From IMG/VR virus record IMGVR_UViG_3300036987_000310, positions 256,001-320,000 of that record: 64,000 bases of DNA; one strand, 5' to 3'. Numbering within the stretch: position 1 is the first letter of the stretch; every line of letters begins with the position of its first letter. Positions 16,338-50,026 of this stretch are shown here, in pieces. The translations under genes were made by a program, and so were the position numbers. Under the pieces are notes generated by a model. That model was given only the letters and a program-made list of their open reading frames with translations. It searched no databases and was not told the origin of the DNA. Source of the DNA: a virus (Duplodnaviria > Caudoviricetes).

Positions 16338-16616
16338 ATGACGCTTTATTCGTTTGGGAAACTGATGGAAATACTTTGGCAACCGGAACCAGGTAAGTGT
16401 CACCATTGTGGACGGAAGTTTAAACTGGTGCGCCGATTCACTACTGGAAGACATCATGTCATATTTTGTTATTCTTGTTGGCAAAAAGCACAGGAAGGCA
16501 AGCAAGAACTTTTTGTAAACAGGCAGGAGTGGAGAGACAACACTGCCATGAAATTTGAGCTGTTCGACGATGTAAATGAGGAGCGTGGAGCCACACAAGA
16601 CGCTTGTTGGAACTGA
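16338..16616 (+). CDS. hypothetical zinc-finger protein
   Basis: CHHC...CYSC. Confidence 0.5.
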   Translation: MTLYSFGKLMEILWQPEPGKCHHCGRKFKLVRRFTTGRHHVIFCYSCWQKAQEGKQELFVNRQEWRDNTAMKFELFDDVNEERGATQDACWN

Positions 16617-17301
16617 AAACCGCCCAGACCTGTCCAAAGGTCCGGAAGCTTATTTTCAAACCGCTCTAAAATTCGTTCAAGAAAACTATTTGGACGAGCT
16701 TGAGAGAATATCGTCTGTAAATTTTGACACGGTTGATGACGATTTTTTCTTTCGCGAGTACGTGTGGGTCGTCCATGCCACCGGGTTTTCCGCAAAAGCT
16801 GTTGGAAAATTCATGCCAGAACTTTTGAAAGCTTACGGATGGTGGAATAAGCTAGCAGAAGATTCGTTTGAAGACATGATGGGCCGGGTCAAGCCGGTTT
16901 GCAACAACCCGCAAAAAGCCAAAGCTATATATGACACGGCAAAAAGAATGTTCCAGGCTATGTTTCCGACATCCGGGGAAGGGATGTTATGGAATGACTG
17001 GAAAAATGATAACCTGAGTTCGCCGGAACTTTTAACAAAGCTTCCTTATATAGGGAAGGTCACATGTTTCCATTTGGCTAGAAACATAGGTCTTTTGGAA
17101 TTTGTCAAACCGGACCTTCATTTGGTCAGGATGGCAAAACACTGGGGTTTTGGCAACTGTGTAGAAATGTGCGAAACACTGCAGAAACATCACGTTGACA
17201 ATGGCGGAAAAAAACTCCCGCTAGGAGTCATAGACCTCATTCTCTGGTATTCGGCAAGTCATTTCTCAACATTAAATATACGACAACCAGGGGACCGATG
17301 A
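16576..17301 (+). CDS. HhH-GPD superfamily DNA glycosylase-like protein
   Basis: LTKLPYIGKVT (HhH) followed by VKPDLHL (GPD-like Asp). Confidence 0.7.
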   Translation: MRSVEPHKTLVGTENRPDLSKGPEAYFQTALKFVQENYLDELERISSVNFDTVDDDFFFREYVWVVHATGFSAKAVGKFMPELLKAYGWWNKLAEDSFEDMMGRVKPVCNNPQKAKAIYDTAKRMFQAMFPTSGEGMLWNDWKNDNLSSPELLTKLPYIGKVTCFHLARNIGLLEFVKPDLHLVRMAKHWGFGNCVEMCETLQKHHVDNGGKKLPLGVIDLILWYSASHFSTLNIRQPGDR

Positions 17302-17328
17302 TTTATTGGTTCTAATGTATTATGCAGG

Positions 17329-18291
17329 ATGCATTACATATTTTGTGTGTCCGGGTTTTCAGGAACCGGAAAAGACGAGTTCTGCCGACGTCTTGTTGAA
17401 GGCCACAGTGCAGTTCATACTGGTTTAGCTGATCCAGCTAAACGTCACATGGCTGACATATACGGGTTCACTCACGATCAGTTGTTTGGTCCGAGTCATA
17501 TGCGCAACGCCGGGGACCCGAGGTATCCGAAAACTGCCATCACCAAGGCTGGTGCGAGACTGGCTGACATGTCCGAGTTATTAGACGTTAGCGGGGATGA
17601 CCACACGGATCCTGAAAAGATTTGGTGGTGTGCCGATTTGGACTTGACAGACGAAACTGAGATCAGAAATCTTGTAATGGCCCCGAACGGTTCCGCTTGC
17701 GCTGGAAAGAAGCTTTTTCAAAGCAGGCGACTTGGCGGAACTCAGGTGCGAATCTTCTTTGAAGACACAAACCCGATGTTCTTCCTATCGCCACGCGAGG
17801 CGCTTCAAAAGTATTGCGACCTGATGAATCGGATGTATCTGTGCACCTGGGTTCAGGCCGGCGTCGAGCTGCACAGAAAGTTGGCCGTGCTCAGAGACAT
17901 CCTGACTCGGGACGACCAGGTGAGTCGACCTGTTCATGCATACGACAGGATGCTTGGGCTGATGCCGAACGAATTCAGAGTCGGGTCTGAAGCGAGCTTT
18001 CATCGGCAGGCGACCTACGACGTCGTGACGTGCTTCTCGGACTTCCGGCACCGCCATGAGATCCGTTATGTTCGCGAGGCGGAAAGAGAACGCGGCGGCT
18101 TCAGGGCCGTGCTCATCAGGGTGAAGCGTCCCGGAGTGGAAAAACCGCCATTCAACCACCGCTCCGAGACAGAGCAGGCAACCATCCCAGACTCCGAATT
18201 CGACTACGTAGTCGACAACAACAACACAATTTCTGGCCTCCACGCTGTGGTGGACACGATCGTGAGCCAGGTGAAAGGCGAGAGCAAGTGA
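17329..18291 (+). CDS. deoxynucleoside monophosphate kinase
   Basis: SGFSGTGKD P-loop, LADPAK, SPREALQ, SDFRHRHE, HRSE, FDYVVDN. Confidence 0.85.
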   Translation: MHYIFCVSGFSGTGKDEFCRRLVEGHSAVHTGLADPAKRHMADIYGFTHDQLFGPSHMRNAGDPRYPKTAITKAGARLADMSELLDVSGDDHTDPEKIWWCADLDLTDETEIRNLVMAPNGSACAGKKLFQSRRLGGTQVRIFFEDTNPMFFLSPREALQKYCDLMNRMYLCTWVQAGVELHRKLAVLRDILTRDDQVSRPVHAYDRMLGLMPNEFRVGSEASFHRQATYDVVTCFSDFRHRHEIRYVREAERERGGFRAVLIRVKRPGVEKPPFNHRSETEQATIPDSEFDYVVDNNNTISGLHAVVDTIVSQVKGESK

Positions 18292-19241
18292 ACAAGGACA
18301 CATTGTTGCAAGTTTCCGAAATCGTGTCCCATGCCGGGTGTCCGGATGGAATTGGGGCGGCCATGATATGCAATGCCGCATACGCTTCATGCGGAATGCA
18401 CCCTCCCCCGACGAATTTCGTTCAGTACGGAACTCGCTTTCACGATAACCTCGTTTCACGCTCAAAGCAGCTTTTTGTCGACATCACACCCCCTAAGGGA
18501 CGATGGGAAGAATGGATGGGTTTGGACCCCGTCGTTCTCGATCATCACGAAACTATGATGCATGTGGTCAACTCGCTAAATGGAAAATATGGGGGCGCGG
18601 ATCACTCTGGAGCCATGTTGGCGTTTGAGAACGTCATGCTCCCTTTGGCAGGCGACTCGATGCAGAAACAAGACTTAGAGTCGTGGGAAAGACTAGCCCG
18701 TCTATGCATGGTTCGCGACACATGGAAAACAGCGTCCCCGGATTGGGACGATGCGTGCGCTCTGGCGCACGCGCTCCTCTTGTACGGCCAGAAATGGGGC
18801 GTTTCTGCTGCGATAGCTGGCAAAGTTCCTCTTGATGAGCTGCTTCCTGTCGGCGCCAAGGTTCACGATAAAATTCGACGTCAATCGAAAGGGGTTGTCA
18901 AGAATTCTCCTCGCAGAAACGTCAAGATTGGCGACGCTTCTGTCACCGTGGTTTTCTTCAATCATGCCAATGGTGGAACCATGAGCGACATCGCCCACTT
19001 CGTCATGGACTTGATGCCATGCAATGCAGTTGTCTCATACTTCTTTGTTTACGACAACGAGGAAGTACAAAACGTCGCGTCTGTTCGAACTGATGGGTGT
19101 TTTTCTGCCCGAGGACTTGCCGAGTCGTTTGGCGGTGGTGGACACAATAACTCTGCTGGATTCCGAATCCCCGGGGAGTACTCTCCGAATCAGATTATTG
19201 AAATGGTCATGGAAAGGATTGTCACGCTTCATAGCCGATAG
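18288..19241 (+). CDS. DHH/DHHA1 phosphoesterase
   Basis: H..CPDG, FVDI, LDHH, SVR, GGGGH...AG. Confidence 0.85.
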   Translation: MNKDTLLQVSEIVSHAGCPDGIGAAMICNAAYASCGMHPPPTNFVQYGTRFHDNLVSRSKQLFVDITPPKGRWEEWMGLDPVVLDHHETMMHVVNSLNGKYGGADHSGAMLAFENVMLPLAGDSMQKQDLESWERLARLCMVRDTWKTASPDWDDACALAHALLLYGQKWGVSAAIAGKVPLDELLPVGAKVHDKIRRQSKGVVKNSPRRNVKIGDASVTVVFFNHANGGTMSDIAHFVMDLMPCNAVVSYFFVYDNEEVQNVASVRTDGCFSARGLAESFGGGGHNNSAGFRIPGEYSPNQIIEMVMERIVTLHSR

Positions 19242-21866: not shown

Positions 21867-22060
21867 GAGAGTCCTCCATGTTCAACATACAACAAAGAAT
21901 GTCTGCTCTTGGTGTCTTCCATCTCAAAGCGTTGCATACGTTTTCCGGAGTTCCAGAAGACTTTAGACCGTGGGAATGCGGTTTGTCTCCATCTGCGTTA
22001 TATAATTGTTCTTTGACATGTAGAAAACAAATGGGAGTGAAGACTCCGGAAGTCAAATGG

Positions 22061-22444
22061 ATGAGCATAAAACGGTGGGTTACGACGACTCCAGGAGGAA
22101 TACATCTTCCACCGGGGGTTTTCTTTTCCATCAAAAGAAAGGAAAAGTTTACGGCCTTGCCGAAGGCACATTTTGAGAAAAAAGAGTTTGTTCTGCTGAT
22201 GTTTCCGTACGGGAACGTGTGGAGTCAAAAAGAACTGGATGTTCCCATCGACGAAGAGTGGATGTTTTCCGAAAGTGATGGAATGACAATTTTGGAATTG
22301 TTAATGAGGAAAGATGCGGCTCATCCCGTCCGTGGCTATTTCAAGTCATGTTTCGAATATATGGAAAACAATCAAGATCAACTGTGGATACACATGAAGA
22401 GGCGTAGAAAAGAAGTTATCCCTGTTGAATCTTCAACCAACTGA
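22061..22444 (+). CDS. hypothetical protein
   Basis: 3' part of 21878..22444; start uncertain. Confidence 0.45.
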   Translation: MSIKRWVTTTPGGIHLPPGVFFSIKRKEKFTALPKAHFEKKEFVLLMFPYGNVWSQKELDVPIDEEWMFSESDGMTILELLMRKDAAHPVRGYFKSCFEYMENNQDQLWIHMKRRRKEVIPVESSTN

Positions 22445-22703
22445 GAACGGACAAAAGCCTTGCTTCCTGTTCAACCTTCAAGTCCACATCCTCTCTGCCG
22501 GATATGGCAGGAAGTGTCACAGTTACGTTTGTTTCAAATTCTTTGACCTCGACTGAAACAATTTTTATGGATTCCACTTTGTGTGGACCTACGTATGCTT
22601 GCATGGAACATGGCCATGGCCCGGGTCCGATCACTATTGTGAGCGTTTCGTCTGCAAACACTCTTGGGGGATTCATTTTTTCTTTGAAGCAAACAAAGTG
22701 CAC
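22416..22703 (-). CDS. small beta-rich hypothetical protein
   Basis: co-oriented downstream of purZ. Confidence 0.5.
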   Translation of the reverse strand: MHFVCFKEKMNPPRVFADETLTIVIGPGPWPCSMQAYVGPHKVESIKIVSVEVKEFETNVTVTLPAISGREDVDLKVEQEARLLSVLSWLKIQQG

Positions 22704-22963
22704 TTTAGCCCAGGAACCCGGCTCAAAAGTTTGAAATAACCCTCTGCTTCGGTTTTCACGCTGGGGTCCACAAGGTCTGGTTGAAGTCCGCGAAGCATGT
22801 CCATTGAGATGGCTGGCAAGAAATCGTCGGAGTCAAGATCGATTCTGAGCTTATTGACAAACCCTATCTGCTCAGAATCGACAAAAATCTTGGTGACTGG
22901 CGTAATGACGCCAGACTCAGACACGGTTATCGACAGTTTTATCTCAAATTCGACTGGTTGCAT
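22673..22963 (-). CDS. small beta-rich hypothetical protein
   Basis: AAGGA SD; co-oriented downstream of purZ. Confidence 0.55.
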   Translation of the reverse strand: MQPVEFEIKLSITVSESGVITPVTKIFVDSEQIGFVNKLRIDLDSDDFLPAISMDMLRGLQPDLVDPSVKTEAEGYFKLLSRVPGLKCTLFASKKK

Positions 22964-23056: not shown

Positions 23057-24241
23057 TTACAGCAGACTTATCATGTCGTCATGATCTGCTCCGGTGCCAA
23101 TAAGAACCACCGGTATGTTCGCTGTCTCTTCGATTTTATCGATCATCGCCCTCGTTTCAACTGAGAGCTTGTTGAACGCTTCTCGCCCGCCACGCAGCCC
23201 GTTGTCGTGCCAGTTTAAATATTGCACAAAATTCAAAATCAGCTTCGTAGCCCCGTTTGTGGCGACCGCGTCTTCCAGTCCTGTCCACGAGAAGGTGCAC
23301 ACCCGTCTGACACGTTTCGTTACAGTAGTTTTTTCACGCTCTATGAGACTGCTAACTTCACTGTCTGGCATTCCGGCTTGTTTGGCTATCTGCCCCCAAG
23401 TCAATTCTTTACAGTCAGGATAGAAGTCCCCTGAATATCCAAGTTGCACACCATCTTCTTCAACATTCCCTACGCGAATGCCGAAGGTGCGGAGATTCAG
23501 ATAAACATCCCCAACATCCCTTGCCGGAATTGCCATATCATCCATGGCCTTTTGTGCCGTGCAATTCCTTGAAGTGCAGTGTGGGTAGCTCGAGCCATGA
23601 TCAATGGACAGGGCGTATCCCTGAGATCCTTCGTGCAGCCAGGTGTTTCCTTGTCGGATCATCTGTTGAACGCTTGACCTGAAGTGCGAGCCGTCGAGAA
23701 TGCGGACACAAGACGCAAACTCCTCTAGATCTACTTCCGTTCCTGTCCATTCCTCAACAGACCTCGACCCAGCAAGAAGAACTGATTCCTTCCTAAGGAT
23801 TTTATCCACCATTGCTGCGGAGCACCCCTGCATGGTGGACGCAATATGTTTTGTAGATCCAGGGCCGGTTTTTTCCATTTCGGCGTGGCTGGGAGTGACC
23901 ATGGAAGCTCTAGAGTGAATTGCGACGTTTGGCTTGCCAGTTTGGATCCACTCCGTAATGAGTCGGCTCCAATGTTCGCTGTCGGTTATGGTGATCCCAG
24001 AAGCTGGCGACAACCACCCCATGATGTCCAAAGCTTTAGCCTGTCTGAGCGCCAGAGCCGTAGGGAGGGTCTTTGCCACAAATTTATAGTTTTCGCTTTG
24101 AAAAGTGTGTCCAGCATTCGGAAAATTCGACGACGAGACGTTGTTCACACAGAATTTGTCAACAAGCCATGCCGAAACCTTTCCTTTTCCAGAACTACCC
24201 CACATTGCGTCCAACAGTATGTTAAATTTTCCTTGTTGCAT
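23057..24241 (-). CDS. purZ: PurZ-type N6-succino-2-amino-2'-deoxyadenylate synthase (PurA paralogue)
   Basis: WGSSGKGK (Ser at PurA catalytic Asp13), PNAGH, EGSQG, YPHCTSR, ELTW, TTVTKRVRRV, LNFVQY replacing PurA TKLD. Confidence 0.85.
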   Translation of the reverse strand: MQQGKFNILLDAMWGSSGKGKVSAWLVDKFCVNNVSSSNFPNAGHTFQSENYKFVAKTLPTALALRQAKALDIMGWLSPASGITITDSEHWSRLITEWIQTGKPNVAIHSRASMVTPSHAEMEKTGPGSTKHIASTMQGCSAAMVDKILRKESVLLAGSRSVEEWTGTEVDLEEFASCVRILDGSHFRSSVQQMIRQGNTWLHEGSQGYALSIDHGSSYPHCTSRNCTAQKAMDDMAIPARDVGDVYLNLRTFGIRVGNVEEDGVQLGYSGDFYPDCKELTWGQIAKQAGMPDSEVSSLIEREKTTVTKRVRRVCTFSWTGLEDAVATNGATKLILNFVQYLNWHDNGLRGGREAFNKLSVETRAMIDKIEETANIPVVLIGTGADHDDMISLL

Positions 24242-24242
24242 A

Positions 24243-24536
24243 TCACTCCTCTGGGGAAAACAAAATGCGCCCTTGATACTCTTTTACGTTTGTCAGACCG
24301 GTTGACTCAATGTCTTCTCCGTTCGGATTGAAGACAGCAAACACAAGCTCTCCATTCCCCAAGATGCCATTATGCTGTTCTGACACCTTTCCGATAAAAA
24401 TCTCGAGGGGCAAGTTGGTTCGGACCTTTAAGATCTCTGGACGATCGGCCACCCACCCGTTGGAGTTCAGATGGAGGGTTCCTGGGGGAGCTTCATATGA
24501 CTTATCAATCTGGATCACTGCAATTTTCATCTTCAA
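24243..24536 (-). CDS. hypothetical protein
   Basis: stop 1 nt before purZ start; purZ SD (AGGAG) lies in its 3' end. Confidence 0.55.
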   Translation of the reverse strand: MKMKIAVIQIDKSYEAPPGTLHLNSNGWVADRPEILKVRTNLPLEIFIGKVSEQHNGILGNGELVFAVFNPNGEDIESTGLTNVKEYQGRILFSPEE

Positions 24537-25266
24537 ACACTTCCGATTCTACCGAGGAGATGCGAATGAGGTTTTTCGTCCTCGCTATTTTTCCGAGGTC
24601 TTTCATTTCCAAATATCGAGCTATTCGAAAATTTGGATGTGATGGGTACCCAAAAGCAGCGAGTCTGGCTCCTTGAACTTCCTTAGGAGAGTACATGCGA
24701 CCAACTAGTTGGAGTTGTCTTCTCTTGTTAACGCGGTTCGCCCACCTCATTTCCAGTCTTCGCCTGATTGCCTTTTCTGTCACAAACATGACCCGGATTG
24801 TCATATCTGACGGTATTTTTCCGTTAACTCTCAGAGACACTCTACAAACGTAGTCGCAAGCCAGAGCGAACGCCTCCTGATATGAGTCTGCCCGTATCAG
24901 GACATGCGCCATTTTAAACCTAGGGGGCAGAATGACTCTCCATATTTTTGTTTCCTCGGTCACGCCAGCTTTCGGTCCAAGCAACTTCTCCAGAGTTTCT
25001 TTCCTGTAGCTCGGAAACGCTATACTCATTGCTGCATCATATAACTGTTCAAACCTTGTTTTTCCAACTTCAGACGATGGTGCTGGAATCGAATCAAGCA
25101 ACTCGATGGGAATGGTGTTGTTGACGAGCATGAGTTTCAAAAGAGAAGATAGGTACTGCTTTTCTTTCAATCCTCTGAACCGTTTAACGCATTTTTCTAC
25201 CGCGAGTGAAATCTTCTCCATGTCAATGCGGACAGTGCCGCCTTTTTGTCTCTTGGAATCGATCAT
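24505..25266 (-). CDS. basic hypothetical protein
   Basis: 253 aa from ATG 25266. Confidence 0.6.
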   Translation of the reverse strand: MIDSKRQKGGTVRIDMEKISLAVEKCVKRFRGLKEKQYLSSLLKLMLVNNTIPIELLDSIPAPSSEVGKTRFEQLYDAAMSIAFPSYRKETLEKLLGPKAGVTEETKIWRVILPPRFKMAHVLIRADSYQEAFALACDYVCRVSLRVNGKIPSDMTIRVMFVTEKAIRRRLEMRWANRVNKRRQLQLVGRMYSPKEVQGARLAAFGYPSHPNFRIARYLEMKDLGKIARTKNLIRISSVESEVFEDENCSDPD

Positions 25267-30777: not shown

Positions 30778-31001
30778 TGACCACATTTTGTCCCCGTTGT
30801 TTTAAACCGCTGGAACCTTTCGGGCAAATAAACAGAATGATTTGCCAAGAGTGTCGATGTATATTCGACGTTAAAATCACTGTTGAGCTTGTAGAGGTTT
30901 TTCATGCAGAGAACGCGGGGCGAATTGGAACGAGAAATCCTGCAGGCGGTCTCCTGCCCTCCGGCGAGAATAGTGGTGGAGGGACCGAGAAAGACCGGTA
31001 A
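30777..31001 (+). CDS. zinc-ribbon protein
   Basis: TGATG overlap; CPRC...CQEC; 3' end overlaps holB. Confidence 0.45.
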   Translation: MTTFCPRCFKPLEPFGQINRMICQECRCIFDVKITVELVEVFHAENAGRIGTRNPAGGLLPSGENSGGGTEKDR

Positions 31002-31635
31002 ACGCAGGCTTGTTCATGATGTGCTAGAACTGAATGTTTCGCAACAGGATTTGTTGGAAGTCGATGGCTCCATAGAGGGAGCCAGGCAGGCTCAACAATT
31101 CATAAAGACATTTCCCACCTTTGGCGAGTCTCGAGTTGTTTTGGTGGACGGGCACAATTTTTCCGATTCAGCGCAAGACGCATACTTGAAAATATGCGAG
31201 GATGGGACTGATTTTTCAACCATAATGATGATTGTTGACGATGGAGTAGTTCTGCGTCCGGCGCTCTTGTCTAGGGTTGTCGTGATGAGACTGTTTGAAA
31301 AAATCTCCGGAGACGATTTTTTGTCTTCTGTCATGCGCGAAAAACGTGAGCTTTCAGGTGTGTTGTCTGTCAACGCTCAAGAGATGGAGAGCCTCCATGC
31401 TGCTGTATGTAGCGCTATGGAAGGAAATGTCGATCTCCTCCACATTCCTCGTTTCATGTCGGAATGGTCGAAACTGGATGACGATATGAAAGAGGCTGTT
31501 TTGGCCGTATTTGACCACGCCATAGGCAACTGTTTTGGCACCAGGGCCGCCAACATATCTAAACTCGTCGACACTTTGAGATCTGTGCCATCTGCGAATG
31601 CCGAAATACACTGGTGGCGATCATGCTTAGCATGA
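30904..31635 (+). CDS. holB: clamp-loader delta-prime-like AAA+ subunit
   Basis: GPRKTGK, SAQDAYLKICED, LRPALLSR. Confidence 0.7.
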   Translation: MQRTRGELEREILQAVSCPPARIVVEGPRKTGKRRLVHDVLELNVSQQDLLEVDGSIEGARQAQQFIKTFPTFGESRVVLVDGHNFSDSAQDAYLKICEDGTDFSTIMMIVDDGVVLRPALLSRVVVMRLFEKISGDDFLSSVMREKRELSGVLSVNAQEMESLHAAVCSAMEGNVDLLHIPRFMSEWSKLDDDMKEAVLAVFDHAIGNCFGTRAANISKLVDTLRSVPSANAEIHWWRSCLA

Positions 31636-31644
31636 CGTGATGTA

Positions 31645-32580
31645 ATGTGCTCATTCGTGAGCACACTCATACTTGTTAACGGGGACGACGACTTTCTGAA
31701 AGAGCGAGTTGCTCTTGATGAAGCCGCCATGGCTTTGACTTCGAACGTGATTCAGTTTACGTTTCCAGAAGACATGGACAGATATCTGGAGTTTTTAGAC
31801 GTTCGTCCAATATCTGATGTTCAAAACGTAACGATCATCTGGAATGCGTCTAGCGTTCCAGATGCTTTGAACGACGGTGTCACCATAATTGTTGCCTCTA
31901 AAGGAAAAGTTTTAAGTAACAACGGAGCAAAGCGCACTGTTAACGTAAAGAAGCCGAAACCATATGATAACGGAATTGAATATGTAAATTGGATTCTGAA
32001 TGAGGGAGAGAGACTTAGAATAGATCTAAGTCGTGTGGCTAGTGCGCTTTTTGTGAACTGTGGAACGGACCTTAGAAAGATCTGTTCCGAAATCAGGAAA
32101 CTCGGGGCCCTCTCCGATTCACATGACGCGATCGACCCTTCCATGGCTCGACGCGTCATGTGTTTTTCTGCTGATCTGACGCCGAAAAACGTTGTGGATG
32201 CCATATGCGATGGACACCCAGCAAAGGCGCTTGCCTTTTACGACAAACTCCAAGAGAGAGGGTGTGAAACTGGGTGGGTTATAGCATACATGCAACGTCA
32301 TGTCTTGCAACAGCTTCGCGCGAAAACACTTCTTGAGCAACAAGCGTCACAAGACCAGGTTTCAGCAGCGCTTGGTGTTCACCCGTTAGTTTTCAGGAAT
32401 ACGATCGTTCCTAGGTTGGGTTTATGGAATGCTTCTTCTCTTCGAAAAAGTCTTGTGACTCTTTGCGACCTCGACGTTCTGCATAAGCGTGGGGTTGATG
32501 TTTCTTGTTGGGGACTCGAACCTGAAATAATACGTTTGTCCGAGGAGGCCAAACAAAATGACACAAGCCGCGGGAGTTGA
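31645..32580 (+). CDS. holA: DNA polymerase III delta-like clamp-loader subunit
   Basis: LILVNGDDDFL...; WILNE..RLRI; GTDLR.ICSEIRKL; VVDAI..G...AL. Confidence 0.75.
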   Translation: MCSFVSTLILVNGDDDFLKERVALDEAAMALTSNVIQFTFPEDMDRYLEFLDVRPISDVQNVTIIWNASSVPDALNDGVTIIVASKGKVLSNNGAKRTVNVKKPKPYDNGIEYVNWILNEGERLRIDLSRVASALFVNCGTDLRKICSEIRKLGALSDSHDAIDPSMARRVMCFSADLTPKNVVDAICDGHPAKALAFYDKLQERGCETGWVIAYMQRHVLQQLRAKTLLEQQASQDQVSAALGVHPLVFRNTIVPRLGLWNASSLRKSLVTLCDLDVLHKRGVDVSCWGLEPEIIRLSEEAKQNDTSRGS

Positions 32581-35311
32581 CACACGCTATAACGTTGTTG
32601 AAATGCACAGCGCCGTATACGCGAAGAGCGACGCTGGAAAATGGGTGAGGTTTTTCACCAATGAGGGAACTCATCCGTTTGATGAAATTTTGTGGAAGAC
32701 AGTCGACGCCCGCATTGTCGATCCCAAGGGAAACGTTGTTTTTGAACAGAAAAACGTTGAAGTGCCGGCCTGGTGGGGAAACACGACTGTTGGAATCGTG
32801 GCGGACAAATATCTAAGAGTCATCCACGGTTCGAAAGAACGATCAGTCAAACAGATGATTAAACGTGTTGCCGAGACTCTGCGGTCTTGGGCTGAGAAAC
32901 AGTCATACTTCAACACAGTGCAAGACGCAGACGTGTACGAAGATGAGCTTTGTTATGTGTTGCTGCACCAGTATGGGGCGTTCAATTCTCCTGTTTGGTT
33001 CAACATTGGTGTTCCTGGTCGAAAACAGGTTGCCAGTGCGTGTTTTATTTCAGGCGTCAAAGACACTCTTGACGACATAATGGACTTCCAGAAATCTGAA
33101 GTCAAAATCTTTGCTGGAGGGTCTGGATCCGGCGCAAATCTTTCAGATTTGCGCTCTTCTTATGAACGTCTGTCGTCCGGGTCGTTTACTTCCGGACCAT
33201 TGTCATGGATGAAGGGTCTCGACAAATACGCAGATGCCATGAAATCTGGTGGAAGCACAAGAAACGCCGCCAAGATGATTGTTATGGACATGGACCATCC
33301 TGATGTGCTGGAAACTCGTGATGGCAGGCCCGGGTTCATTAGATGCAAAGCTGCGTCTGAAAAAATCGTTCACGATCTAGCTATGCTCGGGTATAGCGTC
33401 GCTTATGACGATCCTAACTCTGTGTATAAGCTTGTCCCTTACCAGAACGCGAACCACTCTGTTAGTGTCACAGATGAGTTCATGCGTGCTGTGGAAACAG
33501 ACAAAAATTGGGTCACAGTGGAACGAACCACAGGAAAGACGGTTAAAACATATAAAGCCAAGGACTTATGGCGTGAAATTTCCGAGGCTGCTTGGATGTG
33601 CGGAGACCCCGGGATTCAATTCACTGACACCATCAATGAATGGCACACGACACCTAAGGCTGGACGCATCAAGTCCAGCAACCCTTGCAGCGAGTTTTTG
33701 AACGTGGACAACACTGCTTGCAATCTCGCAGCAATAAATTTGACGAAATTTTTTGACGGGCACCGTTTGATGTTTGACAAACTATCTCATGTTGTGCGTG
33801 TTCTTGTGACGGCACAAAATGCGATCATAGACGTGGCTGAATACCCGACAAAGCTTATCGAAAAAAATTCCCATGATCTTCGACCAATAGGGTTGAACTA
33901 TGGAAATCTCGGGTCTCTCATCATGAAGCTTGGTTATGGGTATGACTCTGACGAGGGGAGAGCTGTTGCAGCAAGGACTGCCAGCCTCATGACCGGGCTT
34001 GCATACTTGACGTCTGCAAAGCTTTCGTCGAAGACTGGGCCATTTCCGGCGTTCAATGAGAATCGGGACGACATGTTTTCAGTTATTTCAAAGCACATCG
34101 TTGCAGATGCGAACATCTGTAACAGATGGGGGCTTGACAAGGACCCCCTTGGCGACGACGTGGAGAGTCAAAGCGCTGCTGTATGGAGAGAAGCTCTAGA
34201 CCTCGGGAAGAAATACGGATACTCTGTGTCTCAAGCTACGCTGCAAGCTCCCCTTGGGACTTTGTCTTTCCTGATGGAGATGGACACCACCGGCATCGAA
34301 CCGATGTTCTCTTTGGTGTCTTACAAGTCTCTTGTTGGAGGCGGAACCCTCAAGCTCGTATGCTCGGCGGTAAAAGATGCTCTTCTCAATCTCAAGTATT
34401 CTGAGAGCGAGGCATCATCCATTTGCAAACATATTGAGGACTTTGACTCTATTGAGGGTGCGCCAGAACTTAATTCTGCCCACCTTTCTGTTTTTGACGG
34501 ATCCATGCCATCTGGGAAATCAGAAAGATGTCTTGCACCCATGGCTCACGTGAAGATGCTTGCTGCTATACAGCCCCTCATAACGTGTTCCATCAGTAAA
34601 ACTGTCAATCTTCCGGAAACGGCCACTGTTGACGAGATTTCCGACATCTATACGGAAGCGTGGAAACTTGGGGTGAAATGCATCGCCATATATAGGGACA
34701 AGTGCAAAATGTCCCAACCACTAGCTTCCAAGTCAGAGTCAGTTTCTGCTCCGAGCACTCAGCCGGGAGAGTTGCGCAGACACCTTCCGTCAAACGTGTC
34801 TGGACACCGACATCGATTCACTATTGGCGGTTCTAAGGGATACTTGATGATGAATGAGTACCCCGACGGGACGCTAGGGGAAGTCTTCCTGAAGCTCGGA
34901 AAAACCGGGTCTACCGTAGCAGGTCTCATAGACGGGTTCACTCAGCTTCTGAGCCTTGCGCTCCAGTATGGAGTTCCGTTGGACAAAATGATCAGAAGCT
35001 TTGTGCATACAAAATTCGATCCTGCTGGGTACACAGACAATCCAACCATTCGTTTTACTGATAGCCTCTATGACTATCTTTTCAAGGTTCTGGATACAAG
35101 ATACTATGGGGGCATGAATTCTGGTCTTTCGGACCGAGTTTCTATGCTTCCTGAGTCGAAAGAACACGGTGAAGAGGTGTCCTTTTCGTTGCCTCCACCT
35201 CCAACTATGAACATGAGCGCCCCAATGTGCTCGAACTGCGGAAGCATTACCAGGCGTGTTGGTACGTGCCATATGTGCTTGACATGCGGCACCAGCACAG
35301 GGTGTAGTTAA
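32558..35311 (+). CDS. nrdJ: class II (B12-dependent) ribonucleotide reductase
   Basis: FNSPVWFN, SACFI, GSGSG, QNANHSV, SNPCSEF, CNLAAINL, APLGT; C-terminal CxxC...CxxC. Confidence 0.95.
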   Translation: MTQAAGVDTRYNVVEMHSAVYAKSDAGKWVRFFTNEGTHPFDEILWKTVDARIVDPKGNVVFEQKNVEVPAWWGNTTVGIVADKYLRVIHGSKERSVKQMIKRVAETLRSWAEKQSYFNTVQDADVYEDELCYVLLHQYGAFNSPVWFNIGVPGRKQVASACFISGVKDTLDDIMDFQKSEVKIFAGGSGSGANLSDLRSSYERLSSGSFTSGPLSWMKGLDKYADAMKSGGSTRNAAKMIVMDMDHPDVLETRDGRPGFIRCKAASEKIVHDLAMLGYSVAYDDPNSVYKLVPYQNANHSVSVTDEFMRAVETDKNWVTVERTTGKTVKTYKAKDLWREISEAAWMCGDPGIQFTDTINEWHTTPKAGRIKSSNPCSEFLNVDNTACNLAAINLTKFFDGHRLMFDKLSHVVRVLVTAQNAIIDVAEYPTKLIEKNSHDLRPIGLNYGNLGSLIMKLGYGYDSDEGRAVAARTASLMTGLAYLTSAKLSSKTGPFPAFNENRDDMFSVISKHIVADANICNRWGLDKDPLGDDVESQSAAVWREALDLGKKYGYSVSQATLQAPLGTLSFLMEMDTTGIEPMFSLVSYKSLVGGGTLKLVCSAVKDALLNLKYSESEASSICKHIEDFDSIEGAPELNSAHLSVFDGSMPSGKSERCLAPMAHVKMLAAIQPLITCSISKTVNLPETATVDEISDIYTEAWKLGVKCIAIYRDKCKMSQPLASKSESVSAPSTQPGELRRHLPSNVSGHRHRFTIGGSKGYLMMNEYPDGTLGEVFLKLGKTGSTVAGLIDGFTQLLSLALQYGVPLDKMIRSFVHTKFDPAGYTDNPTIRFTDSLYDYLFKVLDTRYYGGMNSGLSDRVSMLPESKEHGEEVSFSLPPPPTMNMSAPMCSNCGSITRRVGTCHMCLTCGTSTGCS

Positions 35312-35481: not shown

Positions 35482-35949
35482 ATGTCAGCTATGTCACAAA
35501 AACCCGATCAAATAACAATTGATATTCGGCAGCTTCGCAAAGATTTTGAGCTGCCAGAGTATCAAACAGACTCTGCAGCCGGGATGGACCTTCGGGCATC
35601 CGTTTTGGCCCCAGTGACGATATTTCCCGGGGGTCAGGCTTTGATTCCCACGGGGATTTCCGTATCCATCCCCAACGGATACGAAGGTCAGGTTAGGCCG
35701 AGGTCCGGGTTATCGGTCAAGCATGGGGTGACAGTTTTGAATTCCCCCGGCACCATAGATGCAGATTTTCGTGGAGAAGTTTGTGTCATACTGATCAATC
35801 ACGGAAAAAGCCCTTTTATAATTAACGACTCAGATCGCATAGCACAGTTTGTCATTGCTCCGGTAGCTAGAGCAAAATGGCACCCGGTTTGCTGTCTTGA
35901 TGCCACAGAACGTGGAGTGGGTGGTTATGGTTCTACTGGAACCACGTGA
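35482..35949 (+). CDS. dut: trimeric dUTPase
   Basis: [35 protein letters not shown]. Confidence 0.97.
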
Positions 35950-36192: not shown

Positions 36193-37287
36193 CTAGCTGT
36201 CTAAATTTTGGCTGATGTAGGGGATTACGTCGTTTCGTCGCTCTATCAGCACACGACATCCGTGAAACAACTTCAATTCATTGAACATTTTCAGATTATG
36301 TAACGATACACTTTCGATTGTCACTCCACCTATCGGAGTCGGGCTCACCTTGGCAACCGGCGTAACCCTTCCAGTGGGGCCGACTTGCCACACTACGTCC
36401 AGTACTTTAGACTCTGCTTTTTCTGACTCAAATTTCCAAGCAATTTGACCCCTTGGCCTCATGGCCACTTCGCCAAGGTTTTCAAGAGCTTGAATGTTGT
36501 CAACAGACACGACTTGTCCGTCGATATCATATGGTATGCTTTGTCTGTTTTTAGTTACGGTTTCAAAATGCTTTTGAATAGTTTCAACGTTTCCGTAAGC
36601 AGACTCTGGTGTTTTAAAGTTGAGACTCATCAGTTTTTTGAACGCCAACTGCATTGTTTTCGGCGGCGGTTCGCACTTTATCCAATATGCCAAAAATGTT
36701 AGGTTTGCGCAGTCTTCTCCGCCTTTTTTCTTTTCCCGAACCTTTGCCGCGGCCGTGTTTCGCGGGTTTGCGTATATTTCTGCATATTTTTCAGCGAAGA
36801 TGTTTTTCAGCATCACTATTTCCCCTCGAACAGTGATGCTCATGGGTTCGGGAAGGTCTTTTGGGATTGTAGGAACCTGTTTGATGTTCTTTGTTACATC
36901 CTCACCAACAAATCCATCTCCGCGAGTTACGCAGCGGATTAGTTTTCCGTGCTCATATACGAGTTCCATTGAAGACCCGTCTATCTTGTCGGTTATGTGG
37001 AATTGTTCAGCCCCAGTCTTTTTTGCCCATTGTATTAGTTCTTCCAGACTGTTTACTTTATCCAACGACCCCATTGGGATGTCATGTTTGACCTTTTCCC
37101 ACACTGAAATGACTGGGGGGCTGGCCCCGACTGCGTGAACCTCGAAATGATCTGGGCAAATTTGTTTAAGTCTATCCCGCTTTGCATCATAGACGTTGTC
37201 TGGGACCATAGGGTCAAGGTTGTAATAAGCTTCCCTATACTTTTTTAGTTCTTCGATTAGTTTTTTAGCTTCTTCGTCCATGTCCAA
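36193..37287 (-). CDS. ligA: NAD-dependent DNA ligase, N-terminal half (adenylation + OB)
   Basis: AYY...D..YD, H..PMGSLDK, KIDG, RGDG..GED, RGE, NPRN, DIDG, TGRVTPVA, NDVIP; ATG alternative 37281. Confidence 0.92.
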   Translation of the reverse strand: MDMDEEAKKLIEELKKYREAYYNLDPMVPDNVYDAKRDRLKQICPDHFEVHAVGASPPVISVWEKVKHDIPMGSLDKVNSLEELIQWAKKTGAEQFHITDKIDGSSMELVYEHGKLIRCVTRGDGFVGEDVTKNIKQVPTIPKDLPEPMSITVRGEIVMLKNIFAEKYAEIYANPRNTAAAKVREKKKGGEDCANLTFLAYWIKCEPPPKTMQLAFKKLMSLNFKTPESAYGNVETIQKHFETVTKNRQSIPYDIDGQVVSVDNIQALENLGEVAMRPRGQIAWKFESEKAESKVLDVVWQVGPTGRVTPVAKVSPTPIGGVTIESVSLHNLKMFNELKLFHGCRVLIERRNDVIPYISQNLDS

Positions 37288-37826: not shown

Positions 37827-38660
37827 ATGGCAGATTCTCCCGAGTTTTTTCCGATCCCAACAGAGTGTCCTTCGTGTTTTAGCCCTCTGAGCATTGAGGG
37901 TGATTTTTTATACTGTCGTTCAAAGAAGTGCCCGACAAGGTTGTTCGGGGATGTTAAAGTTTGGGTCGACCGTCTAGGACTTCTGTTTTGGGGGGATGCT
38001 CTGATCGGGTCTCTCACTGATCCGGAAAAGTCCAATTCAATAAACTCTGTGGCGGACTTATATGGAATGTCCATCGCAGATTTTGAAGAACATTGTTCTG
38101 GTTTGAAGATGGCGAAAAAGTGTTGGAAGGTTCTTCATGACAACATGTCGGTGCCGCTTGAAGTTGTCATTGCTGGGATGAACATTCCGAACCTTGGACT
38201 GTCGACAGCCACTGACATGGTGAAAGCCGGGTACGACACCGTGGACTCTGTTGTGTCGATCTCAATTGAACAGCTTATGGCCGTCCCGAACATAGGGGAA
38301 ACAACAGCAAAACAGATAAGAGCGGGCCTTGACGCAAAAGGACAATTGCTGAAAGATCTTTCTTTCCATCTTGACATACGTTGTTCAGACTCTGGCCCCC
38401 TGGCTGGCAAAAAAGTATGTATAACTGGAGACGTGTGGGCCCCAAGAAAAGCAGTTCAAAAGCTTATAGTTTCTGCTGGCGGAAGAGCTGTTGACAGCGT
38501 GTCAAAAGACACTGATGTTTTGGTGTGCGACGACGCTTCCAGTTCCTCTGGGAAGAGCAAGCGGGCGGTCGCTTACGGGATACCAATAATTAATGGGTCT
38601 GATTTGAAAAGAGTTCTTGACGGAGAGATTGACTTGAATAAGTTGGTTGCTGAACGATGA
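37827..38660 (+). CDS. ligA: NAD-dependent DNA ligase, C-terminal half (Zn finger, HhH, BRCT)
   Basis: PTECPSC...LYC..KKCP; IPNLG and VPNIG HhH motifs; LAGKKVCITG...SVSKDTDVLV BRCT. Confidence 0.9.
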   Translation: MADSPEFFPIPTECPSCFSPLSIEGDFLYCRSKKCPTRLFGDVKVWVDRLGLLFWGDALIGSLTDPEKSNSINSVADLYGMSIADFEEHCSGLKMAKKCWKVLHDNMSVPLEVVIAGMNIPNLGLSTATDMVKAGYDTVDSVVSISIEQLMAVPNIGETTAKQIRAGLDAKGQLLKDLSFHLDIRCSDSGPLAGKKVCITGDVWAPRKAVQKLIVSAGGRAVDSVSKDTDVLVCDDASSSSGKSKRAVAYGIPIINGSDLKRVLDGEIDLNKLVAER

Positions 38661-42751: not shown

Positions 42752-43036
42752 ATGGGAAAAATTGAGGATCTCGACGAAAGGTACAAAACCCTTTCTCATA
42801 GGCGAGACACACTACAAAAGAACAAAAACCGGATAGAGGCTGAGCTTGAAGCTCGAAAGAGAAATCTGAAAGCTCAGATGGAAGAAGCCAAAAAAGCGGG
42901 TTTCAACCCCGACAATCTGCAAGAAGACATTCGACGCAGCGAAGAGGTGTTGCTGATCAAGCTTGACAACTTTGAAGCTGAGCTTGAAGAGGCTGAGCGA
43001 GCTATGACTCCAATGCTTGAAGAAATCAAGGGATGA
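42752..43036 (+). CDS. coiled-coil protein
   Basis: GGAGG SD; heptad pattern rich in E/K/L. Confidence 0.7.
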   Translation: MGKIEDLDERYKTLSHRRDTLQKNKNRIEAELEARKRNLKAQMEEAKKAGFNPDNLQEDIRRSEEVLLIKLDNFEAELEEAERAMTPMLEEIKG

Positions 43037-43037
43037 C

Positions 43038-47195: not shown

Positions 47196-48530
47196 ATGGT
47201 TTCTAGACTAGATCTGAAGTATAGGCCGCGCAAGTTTTCCGACGTTCTTGGGAATGAAGGGGTCGTACACCTTCTTTTGAAGCGCAGTTTGACTGGGACT
47301 CTGACTGATCAGTCCATGCTTTTTGGGGGTCCGAAAGGGACTGGAAAAACAACGCTCGCCAGGATAGTGGCGATGGCTATTGTCTGCTCTAACAAACAAG
47401 ATGGGGAACCGTGTGGAACCTGTTTGGACTGTCAAGCAGTTTTAAACGAAACCTCAACTTGCGTTGAAGAATTGGATGCTGCGTCTCAGGGGACGGTAGA
47501 CCACATAAGAGAGATGGTTCGAGACTCTGAGTACGAGCCTGTGAATGGTATTGGAAACGTTTACATACTGGACGAGGCTCAACGTTTGAGTGCTGCGTCT
47601 CAAGACGCGATGCTCAAAGCTGTTGAGAACCGATCCATCATGGTGATAATGTGCACCACGGAGCCTCACAAGATACGTGCTCCCATTCGCTCTAGGTCCG
47701 AGGAGTACCCTGTATCTGCTCCTTCGATTGACTTAATGTCTTCGAGGCTCGCAAAAATTTGTGACGAAGAGAGCATTCAATACGACCCGAATGCGCTTAA
47801 AGCGTTATCTCAGATCTCTCAAAACTGCCCCAGAGTTTGCATTCGGGCGCTTGAAACACTTTCTGTGTCCGGTCCGATTAACATGAACAGCATCAGTAGC
47901 TTCTTTCGTTTCAGTAGCTATGAAGATGTCGACAAAGTTCTATCTCGAATTGATGAAAGTCCAAAATCCGCGATCAAGATATTTGACGATCTTGTGGACA
48001 GAGAGGGCCCTGTGTGGGTGCGGGACACTATGCTCTTGGCCATATCAAGTGGTCTAAGAGTTGACGTTGGCGCAGGGCACAATTACCCGTGTCGTATGAC
48101 TTTTTTTCAATCTCGTTTGCGTGGATGGGCAGAGTTGGCTTGTCAGCTTGGGATGATGGAAAGACCTACGGCTGCCGGGATCTTGTCGGCTTTAATCTCG
48201 ACAAAAAAAGCTTTTTGCGTATCGGCTCCGATTTTGCAAGTTCCAACTGCTCCAATTGCTCCAACTTCAACGATTCCTGTGACTTCTGTTGCTCCAGCCT
48301 CACAGTCTTCGCAAACGGTGAAAGTCGCGGTGGAAGACGAAGACCAACTTGAGGTTGACGGGGTCAAATTTTCAACCAAAGAAAGTCTGACCACTTTGGA
48401 CTCCAAAATCGAAGCAAGACAAAGTGTCGACTCTACCAATGAGGTATCGGTAAGCGTAGAGTACCGATCAGACATGGAGCCTATGTCTGATCGGGAGTTT
48501 GCTCGTGGATTTATTGACAGAATCAAATAA
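47196..48530 (+). CDS. dnaX: DNA polymerase III gamma/tau clamp-loader ATPase
   Basis: KYRP..F.DVLG, GPKGTGKT, PCGTC.DC, ELDAAS, ILDEAQ, TTEP, IRSR. Confidence 0.93.
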   Translation: MVSRLDLKYRPRKFSDVLGNEGVVHLLLKRSLTGTLTDQSMLFGGPKGTGKTTLARIVAMAIVCSNKQDGEPCGTCLDCQAVLNETSTCVEELDAASQGTVDHIREMVRDSEYEPVNGIGNVYILDEAQRLSAASQDAMLKAVENRSIMVIMCTTEPHKIRAPIRSRSEEYPVSAPSIDLMSSRLAKICDEESIQYDPNALKALSQISQNCPRVCIRALETLSVSGPINMNSISSFFRFSSYEDVDKVLSRIDESPKSAIKIFDDLVDREGPVWVRDTMLLAISSGLRVDVGAGHNYPCRMTFFQSRLRGWAELACQLGMMERPTAAGILSALISTKKAFCVSAPILQVPTAPIAPTSTIPVTSVAPASQSSQTVKVAVEDEDQLEVDGVKFSTKESLTTLDSKIEARQSVDSTNEVSVSVEYRSDMEPMSDREFARGFIDRIK

Positions 48531-49038
48531 ATGGGTCGTCGTTGGCCTGTCTTCGGCTGGGGAGAAGGAGACAGACTTGAAGGCGATTTCGTCTGCCGTG
48601 CGCCGCATTTTGGGACGGGATTTAAAAGTGTTTGTCCCAGCGGTTTCAAAACAAGCTAGGGACGATTCGCATACCTTGTTTTATATGGATGGTTACATAT
48701 TTGTGGAGCACAGGGATGGGATTCCATACGTAAAGCTTCAGGACACGACTTATTTCAGTCAAGTGTTGTGCTCTAAACGCGGGGGGCGTGTAGAATACTC
48801 GCTTGTCGGGGACGATGTGTTGGCCCCTCTAAGGGAAGGCGTCAAAGATCTTGGAACGTGCAAATTCTCGGTAAACGATAAAGTGCGTGTCATAAAGGGG
48901 GACTTCAGAAACCTGCGCGGGAACGTTCGAATGGTGTATGACGGTGGAGAAGTTGTTCAGGTTGACTTCAGCCAACGTTCAAAGCCTTTGCTCATAGATT
49001 TTCCTGTAATATACCTTCAGAAAGTTCCAGATGAATAA
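48499..49038 (+). CDS. nusG: NusG-family transcription factor (NGN + KOW)
   Basis: KWVVV...VFVP...GYIFVE (NGN); FSVNDKVRVIKGDFRNLRG (KOW). Confidence 0.75.
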   Translation: MLVDLLTESNKWVVVGLSSAGEKETDLKAISSAVRRILGRDLKVFVPAVSKQARDDSHTLFYMDGYIFVEHRDGIPYVKLQDTTYFSQVLCSKRGGRVEYSLVGDDVLAPLREGVKDLGTCKFSVNDKVRVIKGDFRNLRGNVRMVYDGGEVVQVDFSQRSKPLLIDFPVIYLQKVPDE

Positions 49039-50026
49039 ACACATACTGATAGATGGAAACAACCTCCTACACAGAGCTTTCCACGTTTTCGTGAATACAG
49101 AAAGCTCTGTGTTTTCTTCTGATTCCGGGTACCCGACGGGAATGATTTACGGCCCCCTTAGCATGCTCGCTGATTGGATCCCGACTCTTGGGCGTTTTGA
49201 TGCCGTCCATTATTTTCAAGATGGTTTTCCTTCCCGTCGAAAGGCTATGGATCCGGATTACAAAAAACGCGAACCAGGCAGGTCCTCGCCGTCTGATTTG
49301 CCCCATCGTCCTCTCACTCTTGTCGACGGATTTGAAGCACGGAACGAAGTCGACGTACTGATGCATGTCATGCAGCTTCTCGGCGTAAAGATGTACTATG
49401 ATTCGCATGAGGAAGCTGACGATCTCATAGCTTCTTTCATAAAGTCTCGTCCCAACGATGTTCATGTGATTGTGTCGTCCGACAAAGACTTCTTTCAGCT
49501 TTTGGCAAATCCTAGAGTCGCCATATATAGGCCCGGGTCTAAAGGACCAAGGTTTCTCGATGCTGAAGAGGCTGAAAAACACTGGGCTCTTTTGAACAAG
49601 GGAAAACATCCGGTGGTGCCGACGAGATGTGTCCGTATGTTTAAAGCCCTGTGCGGCGATGCGTCTGACAACATTCCGGGAATACCGAAATTGCGAAAAA
49701 AGGTTGCTGTGGCAGCGTCCGTTGGCATGGAGAACATTGACGGTTTGGTGAAGGCCAACTGGCCCGGTTTTTCAAACCTGGAAAGACAACACGCCCAAGA
49801 ACTGGTTGATAGAGTGCGATTGAACTGGGACCTTGTCGGCTTGGTCGACAGTTTAGACCCGCAACCAGTTGAGTGCGCGAAGCCTGATCTTTCTTCTGCA
49901 AATGCCATTCTGAAAAGTTTGAGCATACATCTAGACACGTCGTTTTTGATCCCTGGGCAAGAACGAATGGTGACTGAAGACGTTCCCGTAAAGATCATTG
50001 ACGATGACTGGATGTCTTCCATATGA
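49031..50026 (+). CDS. 5'-3' exonuclease / flap endonuclease (Pol I N-terminal-like)
   Basis: IDGNNL, R...DPDYK, EADDLI, SSDKDF.QL, GDASDNIPG. Confidence 0.93.
   Translation: MNKHILIDGNNLLHRAFHVFVNTESSVFSSDSGYPTGMIYGPLSMLADWIPTLGRFDAVHYFQDGFPSRRKAMDPDYKKREPGRSSPSDLPHRPLTLVDGFEARNEVDVLMHVMQLLGVKMYYDSHEEADDLIASFIKSRPNDVHVIVSSDKDFFQLLANPRVAIYRPGSKGPRFLDAEEAEKHWALLNKGKHPVVPTRCVRMFKALCGDASDNIPGIPKLRKKVAVAASVGMENIDGLVKANWPGFSNLERQHAQELVDRVRLNWDLVGLVDSLDPQPVECAKPDLSSANAILKSLSIHLDTSFLIPGQERMVTEDVPVKIIDDDWMSSI

Follow-up and report, generated by a model that had tools for sequence, protein, structure and literature searches.

A PurZ-type enzyme in a 377-kb phage genome and a candidate dispersed pathway to 2-aminoadenine DNA

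The stretch of DNA analysed here, a 64,000-nucleotide window of a tailed-phage record (IMG/VR virus record IMGVR_UViG_3300036987_000310), carries a gene for a homologue of PurZ, the N6-succino-2-amino-2'-deoxyadenylate synthase of the pathway to 2-aminoadenine (Z) DNA. The window corresponds to bases 256,001-320,000 of a 376,674-bp genome with direct terminal repeats and a CheckV completeness of 100%, so the label of jumbo phage given in the initial annotation of the window holds. The phage sequence occurs in metagenomes from groundwater, coal, soil and wetland; a search of RNA runs gave none that contained it. Around purZ lies a conserved block, seen first in six and then in 49 related loci, with the order: gene for a 253-amino-acid (aa) protein, purZ, variable small open reading frames (ORFs), an opposite-strand gene for a 188-aa protein, and thyX. 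Far outside the window, the same genome encodes an HD-domain protein and a MazG-like protein in overlapping genes, and close to them a family-A DNA polymerase (PolA; Table 1).

Table 1. Features discussed in the text. Positions are those of the window unless marked "genome", which refers to the 376,674-bp record.
Feature	Position	Strand	Evidence
purZ, PurZ-type N6-succino-2-amino-2'-deoxyadenylate synthase homologue, 394 aa, ATG start	23057..24241	-	PF00709, PDB matches, signature residues, tree
Conserved 253-aa protein, co-oriented, directly upstream of purZ	24505..25266	-	tblastn
97-aa ORF between 253-aa gene and purZ	24243..24536	-	Homologue only in closest relative, 362,524-bp contig G001 (L008/L028)
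96-aa ORF downstream of purZ	22673..22963	-	2 of 49 related loci
95-aa ORF downstream of purZ	22416..22703	-	3 of 49 related loci
Conserved 188-aa protein between purZ and thyX	21878..22444	+	50-80% identical homologues in 6 of 6 close and 16 further loci
ThyX, flavin-dependent thymidylate synthase, double length, 441 aa	20541..21866	-	Pfam Thy1 3.8e-36, in two segments; synteny with purZ shared by relatives
Possible dNMP kinase (weak match)	17329..18291	+	Pfam DNMK 2.2e-4, below cutoff
Possible clamp-loader delta-prime-like subunit (weak match)	30904..31635	+	Pfam DNA_pol3_delta2 4e-4, below cutoff
Clamp-loader delta-like subunit	31645..32580	+	Pfam DNA_pol3_delta_C 2.8e-08
Class II (B12-dependent) ribonucleotide reductase	32558..35311	+	Pfam Ribonuc_red_lgC 3.4e-117, Ribonuc_red_2_N, TSCPD
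Canonical trimeric dUTPase	35482..35949	+	PF00692 8.3e-32; PDB dUTPases up to 8e-44
Clamp-loader ATPase, DnaX/gamma-tau-like	47196..48530	+	Pfam DNA_pol3_delta2 1.6e-23 and AAA
FEN gene	49031..50026		
DnaB-type helicase	genome 76,667-78,187		
Family-A polymerase with 3'-5' exonuclease, 942 aa	genome 83,267-86,095		About 7 kb from HD/MazG-like pair
MazG-like gene, 238 aa	genome 92,644-93,360		C-terminal half MazG-like
YfbR-like HD protein, 245 aa	genome 93,360-94,097	-	PF12917 3.6e-20 to 2.5e-19

The 394-aa protein matches the Pfam family Adenylsucc_synt (PF00709) with an E-value of 4.8e-28, and its best matches among solved structures are PurZ of phage phiVC8 (6FM1, 2.4e-30) and then PurZ of phage S-2L (7ODX, 2.2e-27); PurA structures score behind these, the short archaeal PurA of Pyrococcus at 7e-20 and bacterial PurA at about 1e-9. 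The four motifs singled out initially, WGSSGKGK, ELTW, TTVTKRVRRV and LNFVQY, are all present in the ORF. Residues were compared across 75 aligned sequences, which comprised the query, 60 representatives from metagenomes, PurZ of the classical type (six), PurZ0 (two), homologues from two other phages (Flavobacterium phage MaF61 and Bacillus phage vB_BpsS-140) and four PurA (from E. coli, from two metagenome-assembled genomes (MAGs) and from the 735-kb phage LR756503.1). The position of PurA Asp13 is occupied by Ser in every PurZ-like row, including classical PurZ, PurZ0 and all 24 members of the query's own clade (S16 in the query), and by Asp in all four PurA rows; the same change to Ser is reported for 100% of a set of 147 PurZ-group sequences from phages, while 99% of PurA have Asp (Poubanne et al., 2026; PMC12884076).

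The remaining signature residues agree with this assignment. With roles taken from Yang et al. (2025) and phiVC8 numbering, F12 is W14 in the query, which retains an aromatic side chain, Y244, W252 and Y298 are the identical residues Y274, W282 and Y341 (the last in place of a Val in PurA), T262 is T305 (Gly in PurA) and F295 is F338 (Lys331 in PurA). The guanine-binding Asp333 of PurA is lost and Q340 stands in its place, such that F338, Y341 and Q340 form an ATP-type nucleotide pocket and the GTP-binding pair Lys331 and Asp333 is gone. The equivalents of the catalytic residues K16, N38, H41, Q224, T129, T301 and R305 are all conserved, and the PurZ-specific pocket residues are kept throughout the query's clade. 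The query thus shares with the phiVC8 and S-2L enzymes the fold, the catalytic residues, the Ser at Asp13, the pocket for dGMP's 2-amino group (an aromatic residue at F12, S14 and T262) and the adenine-ring residues F295 and Y298. It differs from them in being only 28-29% identical (tblastn), in keeping a longer, PurA-like C-terminus, in an insertion at residues 286-302, and in its setting, since the gene is not beside datZ or mazZ and the phage genome is about nine times larger. From its sequence, signature residues and phylogeny, the protein is very probably a PurZ-type enzyme, as the initial annotation had proposed in preference to PurA.

The phylogeny proposed at the outset, with PurA, PurZ0 and PurZ, places the query on the PurZ side and not within PurA. 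In a careful IQ-TREE run (supports given as ultrafast bootstrap/SH-aLRT; archaeal PurA absent from the tree), PurA and PurZ0 each formed a group with support of 100/100, and classical PurZ formed one with 100/96. The query's own clade comprises 24 rows, including phage MaF61 (100/95), and the smallest group that holds both the query and phiVC8 PurZ has 38 rows (91/83) and excludes PurZ0 and PurA, so that the query and the phiVC8 and S-2L enzymes all fall on the PurZ side of the PurZ0/PurZ split. The query sits in a large metagenomic clade adjoining, and separate from, classical PurZ. The MaF61 protein (168-kb genome), recorded as a "putative adenosuccinate synthetase", shares with the query the motifs GSSGKGK, ELTW and NFVNY, but is 27% identical, with a long branch and large insertions.

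Z genomes have been described as a feature of siphoviruses and podoviruses, with 147 phage PurZ-group sequences among NCBI viruses, in seven phage groups (PMC12884076, PMC8599892). The query's PurZ clade is much larger than this published count and reaches contigs of up to 445 kb. Clustered at 50% identity, the homologues from an exhaustive search formed 177 clusters under a cutoff of E ≤ 1e-30 and 966 under E ≤ 1e-10. A search of 90% clusters listed homologues that share 56-78% identity and lie on contigs as long as 445 kb; in IMG/VR there are 47 related loci, and many of their contigs measure 200-436 kb. The GenBank phage collection contained no PurZ homologue above 33% identity. We found no link in the literature between PurZ and jumbo or huge phages, in a search that did not cover subscription journals.

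Three side observations concern this family. Six PurZ homologues (P0002, P0003, P0004, P0009, P0010 and P0024) are 750-1197 aa long and align with the query in two or three discrete segments, which suggests purZ genes interrupted by inteins. Contigs with the phage purZ block are binned with a Methylobacter MAG (L026) and a Lentisphaeria MAG (L027), both of which carry a normal purA of their own as well; these contigs reflect either mis-binning or a hint about hosts. Lastly, the 735-kb phage LR756503.1 (L087) encodes a true PurA with the GDEGKG motif that groups with cellular PurA, and huge phages therefore hold both PurA-type and PurZ-type enzymes.

The window itself contains no HD or MazG gene, as first noted: PF01966 and PF03819 have no match there, and the only PF12917 match in the genome lies at 93 kb. 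The statement that no DatZ or MazZ is nearby is correct for the window; it does not extend to the genome, where the HD and MazG-like genes overlap by one base at 92.6-94.1 kb. The HD protein and the DatZ sequences of S-2L, phiVC8, PMBT28 and BCSR129 share R45, H60, H103, D104, E107, D112, K118, K169 and D172 (query numbering) as invariant residues. Like S-2L DatZ (6ZPA), the protein folds as a YfbR-like HD domain and has the metal ligands H, HD and D, the equivalents of the phosphate-binding residues R19, K81 and K116, and an aromatic residue at the sugar-gating position (roles of DatZ residues from PMC8065100). It differs in length (245 aa versus 175 aa), in an identity of about 20%, and at the DatZ specificity residues W20 and I22, neither of which is present: Y46 and S48 occupy these positions, and in relatives the first holds Y or F and the second S or T. 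Y20 combined with T or S at position 22 has been described in YfbR-like proteins on restriction-resistant, dZ-enriched contigs and proposed as an alternative solution to specificity (Yang et al., 2025, preprint). The predicted model matches the fold of the OxsA, YfbR and DatZ family in a search that did not separate DatZ from YfbR or OxsA. We regard the protein as a candidate dATP remover, a phosphohydrolase of YfbR/DatZ type.

The gene for the 238-aa neighbour is joined directly to the HD gene, an arrangement also found for mazZ and datZ in S-2L. The family to which it belongs appears to be MazG-like: six of seven homologues match PF12643 (best 7e-6) and one matches PF03819, the family profile matches MazG-like and DCTPP1 all-alpha NTP pyrophosphatase structures in the PDB at 2e-3 to 2e-2, and E161, E164, E190 and D193 are invariant. 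Like S-2L MazZ and other MazG-like proteins, it appears to keep the conserved E..E and E..D metal motifs within an all-alpha domain at the C-terminus; unlike S-2L MazZ, to which similarity is very weak (a 36-residue BLAST match), it has an additional 60-130 aa at the N-terminus. We consider it a candidate supplier of dGMP. The genome scan with PF03819 missed this gene, which direct hmmscan detected. As a separate observation, one of the seven homologues matches Multiubiquitin (PF14452, 1.6e-06); this match probably belongs to L015:2109-2822, the G003 homologue, whose C-terminus is extended by about 70 aa.

The third member of the distant locus, PolA, resembles the Z-selective DpoZ enzymes of phiVC8 and PMBT28 in combining family-A polymerase and 3'-5' exonuclease domains without a 5'-3' exonuclease domain (FEN has its own gene, in the window), and differs from these DpoZ-2 enzymes in a C-terminal extension of about 200 aa. 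The same region (G000:C1:76,001-96,000, L006) also encodes a DnaJ that is complete, with its J domain, zinc finger and C-terminal domain, together with a protein carrying sigma-70 region 2 and a carbon-nitrogen hydrolase, which are unusual passengers in a replication module. Complete-genome scans gave no match to PF01966, PF03819, PF04447, PF00136, PF07733, PF00206 (PurB), PF05014 (NDT/DmtZ) or PF00712; in the PF04447 control, none of 14 control genomes matched at the strict threshold. The genome-wide profile search first proposed as a check found the HD gene and gave no match for the alpha subunit of DNA polymerase III (Pol III).

Both loci are retained among close relatives. The HD gene occurs in all four complete relatives with PurZ of at least 57% identity, namely G001 (363 kb), G002 (427 kb), G003 (393 kb) and G009 (436 kb), and the MazG-like gene adjoins it in each of six relatives examined. 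PolA is likewise found in the four complete relatives, 56-71% identical by BLAST (60-73% by the search tool) and about 7-10 kb from the HD pair; its relatives beyond the complete genomes are on fragments that are 24-67% complete and uninformative for association with purZ. In each of the four, purZ lies about 200 kb from the HD/MazG-like/PolA locus, and since the layout is the same in all of them, the two-locus arrangement is a stable feature of the clade.

The sequences show to which families the proteins belong, the signature residues, the tree position, the presence of the genes and their conserved synteny; the route that follows, with the substrate specificities of all its enzymes and the presence of Z in virion DNA, is our inference. 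The class II ribonucleotide reductase encoded in the window, a likely source of deoxynucleotides, would provide the precursors; the MazG-like enzyme would convert dGTP to dGMP; and PurZ, by homology, would combine dGMP with aspartate and ATP to give dSMP (N6-succino-2-amino-2'-deoxyadenylate), the precursor of Z nucleotides. Host PurB would release dZMP, a step we assign to the host lyase because no phage lyase was found (PF00206), and host or phage kinases would form dZTP, with the weakly matching dNMP kinase of the window as a candidate for dZMP. The HD enzyme would meanwhile deplete dATP, and PolA would copy the genome with Z in place of A. On balance, we favour the view that the 377-kb genome is Z-substituted through such a dispersed set of genes, with purZ in one place and the HD, MazG-like and PolA genes about 185 kb away. 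The proposed route departs from the known Z-DNA pathway in its new PurZ clade, its huge-phage genomes, its split layout, its Tyr/Ser-type HD protein and a PolA that probably lies outside the DpoZ groups characterised so far. The use of 2-aminoadenine in DNA thus probably extends to very large phages. We put at about even the broader proposal that an entire clade of phages with genomes of 360-440 kb, sampled from groundwater, coal, soil and wetland, replaces A by Z in full, in genomes about ten times the size of any known Z genome, by means of a divergent PurZ, a Tyr/Ser DatZ-like hydrolase, a MazG-like protein and a non-DpoZ PolA at two loci about 200 kb apart. In such a clade, the conserved 253-aa protein encoded upstream of purZ could be an undescribed component of the pathway. 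If phages of this kind do use Z, complete replacement of a base is feasible in genomes as large as about 400 kb, a tight purZ-datZ-mazZ operon is not needed, and polymerases outside the known DpoZ clades suffice. It would also widen the search space for Z-compatible replication enzymes, and imply that many metagenomic huge phages carry restriction-resistant DNA.

Several observations weigh against a Z genome, and some of them favour a different explanation, in which the PurZ-like enzyme serves partial substitution or a non-genomic use and the HD/MazG-like pair serves control of deoxynucleoside triphosphate pools or counter-defence. Phages commonly carry HD and MazG genes for unrelated reasons. 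Here, the HD protein lacks I22, the DatZ residue that excludes 2-amino purines, and in sequence and predicted fold stands as near to YfbR or OxsA as to DatZ; the MazG-like protein of this genome itself matches PF12643 only at 1.3e-3, below the Pfam cutoff. PolA is only 20-23% identical to DpoZ of phiVC8 and PMBT28 and probably falls outside the known DpoZ clades, its nearest relatives being those of other huge phages and its best phage-database match that of a 485-kb uncultured phage. Moreover, purZ is about 185 kb from the HD/MazG-like pair (185-196 kb from the HD, MazG-like and PolA genes), whereas in characterised Z phages purZ is clustered within a few kb with datZ, mazZ or dpoZ, an arrangement that is typical without being defining. 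A YfbR-like HD gene is absent from six complete genomes of huge phages whose PurZ-like genes show 40-54% identity, so the association of purZ with the HD gene is clade-wide rather than universal, and the co-occurrence of the two loci cannot be separated from shared descent. Nonetheless, the conservation of every PurZ-specific pocket residue across the clade, the joint retention of the two loci in every complete close relative and the occurrence of the Tyr/Ser HD variant on dZ-enriched contigs argue for a Z genome, and we consider a partial or non-genomic use possible but unlikely.

We think it far less likely that a Z genome is copied by a Pol III-type holoenzyme, with small ORFs flanking purZ encoding novel dATP-excluding enzymes, as the initial annotation suggested. 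In favour of a Pol III-type replisome, the genome does encode clamp-loader subunits. The annotation of these as DnaX, HolA and HolB stands in that there are three clamp-loader-type proteins, the third being no more than a weak match. The clamp-loader subunits are the only Pol III-type components detected: Pol III alpha (PF07733) had no match in the complete genome, in a scan whose controls matched and which detected it in four other huge phages, PolB was not found in the complete-genome scan, and PolA and a DnaB-type helicase are encoded instead. For the probable clamp, a 371-aa ORF at 43017-44132, searches of Pfam, PHROG and PDB sequences gave no match, and PF00712, the beta clamp family, has no match genome-wide, a result compatible with a divergent clamp.

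The proposed hidden partners fare little better. Three of the four flanking ORFs (the 97-, 96- and 95-aa ORFs) have no Pfam or PHROG family match, occur only in the one or two closest relatives and are unlikely to be required partners. The fourth, the 253-aa protein, is indeed conserved beside purZ: it has a homologue in six of six close loci and within 3 kb of purZ in 20 of 24 loci with PurZ of at least 55% identity (L026-L049, tblastn), directly upstream in all but one contig, and 28 residues are invariant among relatives. The longest ORF extends to 25449, and relatives support the start at 25266. The protein has no Pfam, PHROG or Atlas match, and its AlphaFold model (pLDDT 73) has no fold match, the best Foldseek hit to the PDB having an E-value of 0.2 and the best of a wide VIA-align search a Z score of 5.3, which is noise level. 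With candidate DatZ-like and MazZ-like genes elsewhere in the genome, the apparent Pol III replisome and the apparently missing partners are artefacts of having seen only 64 kb of a 377-kb genome.

Pol III alpha is encoded by four of the six genomes that lack the HD gene, and a picture of PurZ combined with Pol III may fit these lineages rather than the 377-kb genome. Four complete or near-complete genomes of 354-395 kb (G014, G017, G018 and G020; loci L050, L055, L063 and L068) have PurZ-like proteins about 40% identical to the query, Pol III alpha apparently in pieces and no YfbR-like HD gene; they may represent a different solution for Z genome replication.

The least likely alternative, an ordinary auxiliary PurA that converts IMP, aspartate and GTP to adenylosuccinate and boosts host AMP synthesis as in some huge phages, accords with the database annotation as adenylosuccinate synthase and with the true PurA of LR756503.1, but is very hard to reconcile with the loss of Asp13 to Ser, the replacement of the GTP-binding Lys331 and Asp333 by Phe and Gln, and a tree that separates the query from PurA, that of huge phages included, at 100/100.

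Other genes of the window include several with possible links to nucleotide metabolism. The 188-aa protein encoded between purZ and thyX has only Atlas matches below 0.8, none of them informative. The dUTPase is canonical and trimeric, without similarity to Ghobes gp53, and we rejected a DutZ-like identity for it. Three co-oriented genes at 16576-19241 on the plus strand, 4-7 kb from purZ, encode a 241-aa ORF without a Pfam match, the protein that weakly matches dNMP kinases and a DHHA1 phosphoesterase. These may be further enzymes of the nucleotide pool, and their synteny with purZ is not kept in most relatives. The window further encodes RecD2, an Mre11-like phosphoesterase, a PD-(D/E)XK nuclease and a portal protein. 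An NAD-dependent DNA ligase is seemingly split between opposite strands, at 36193-37287 (minus) and 37827-38660 (plus), with the adenylation and OB domains in one gene and the HhH and BRCT domains in the other. Lastly, the large terminase subunit (1107 aa, 58081-61404, plus strand) contains an intein with a LAGLIDADG homing-endonuclease domain.

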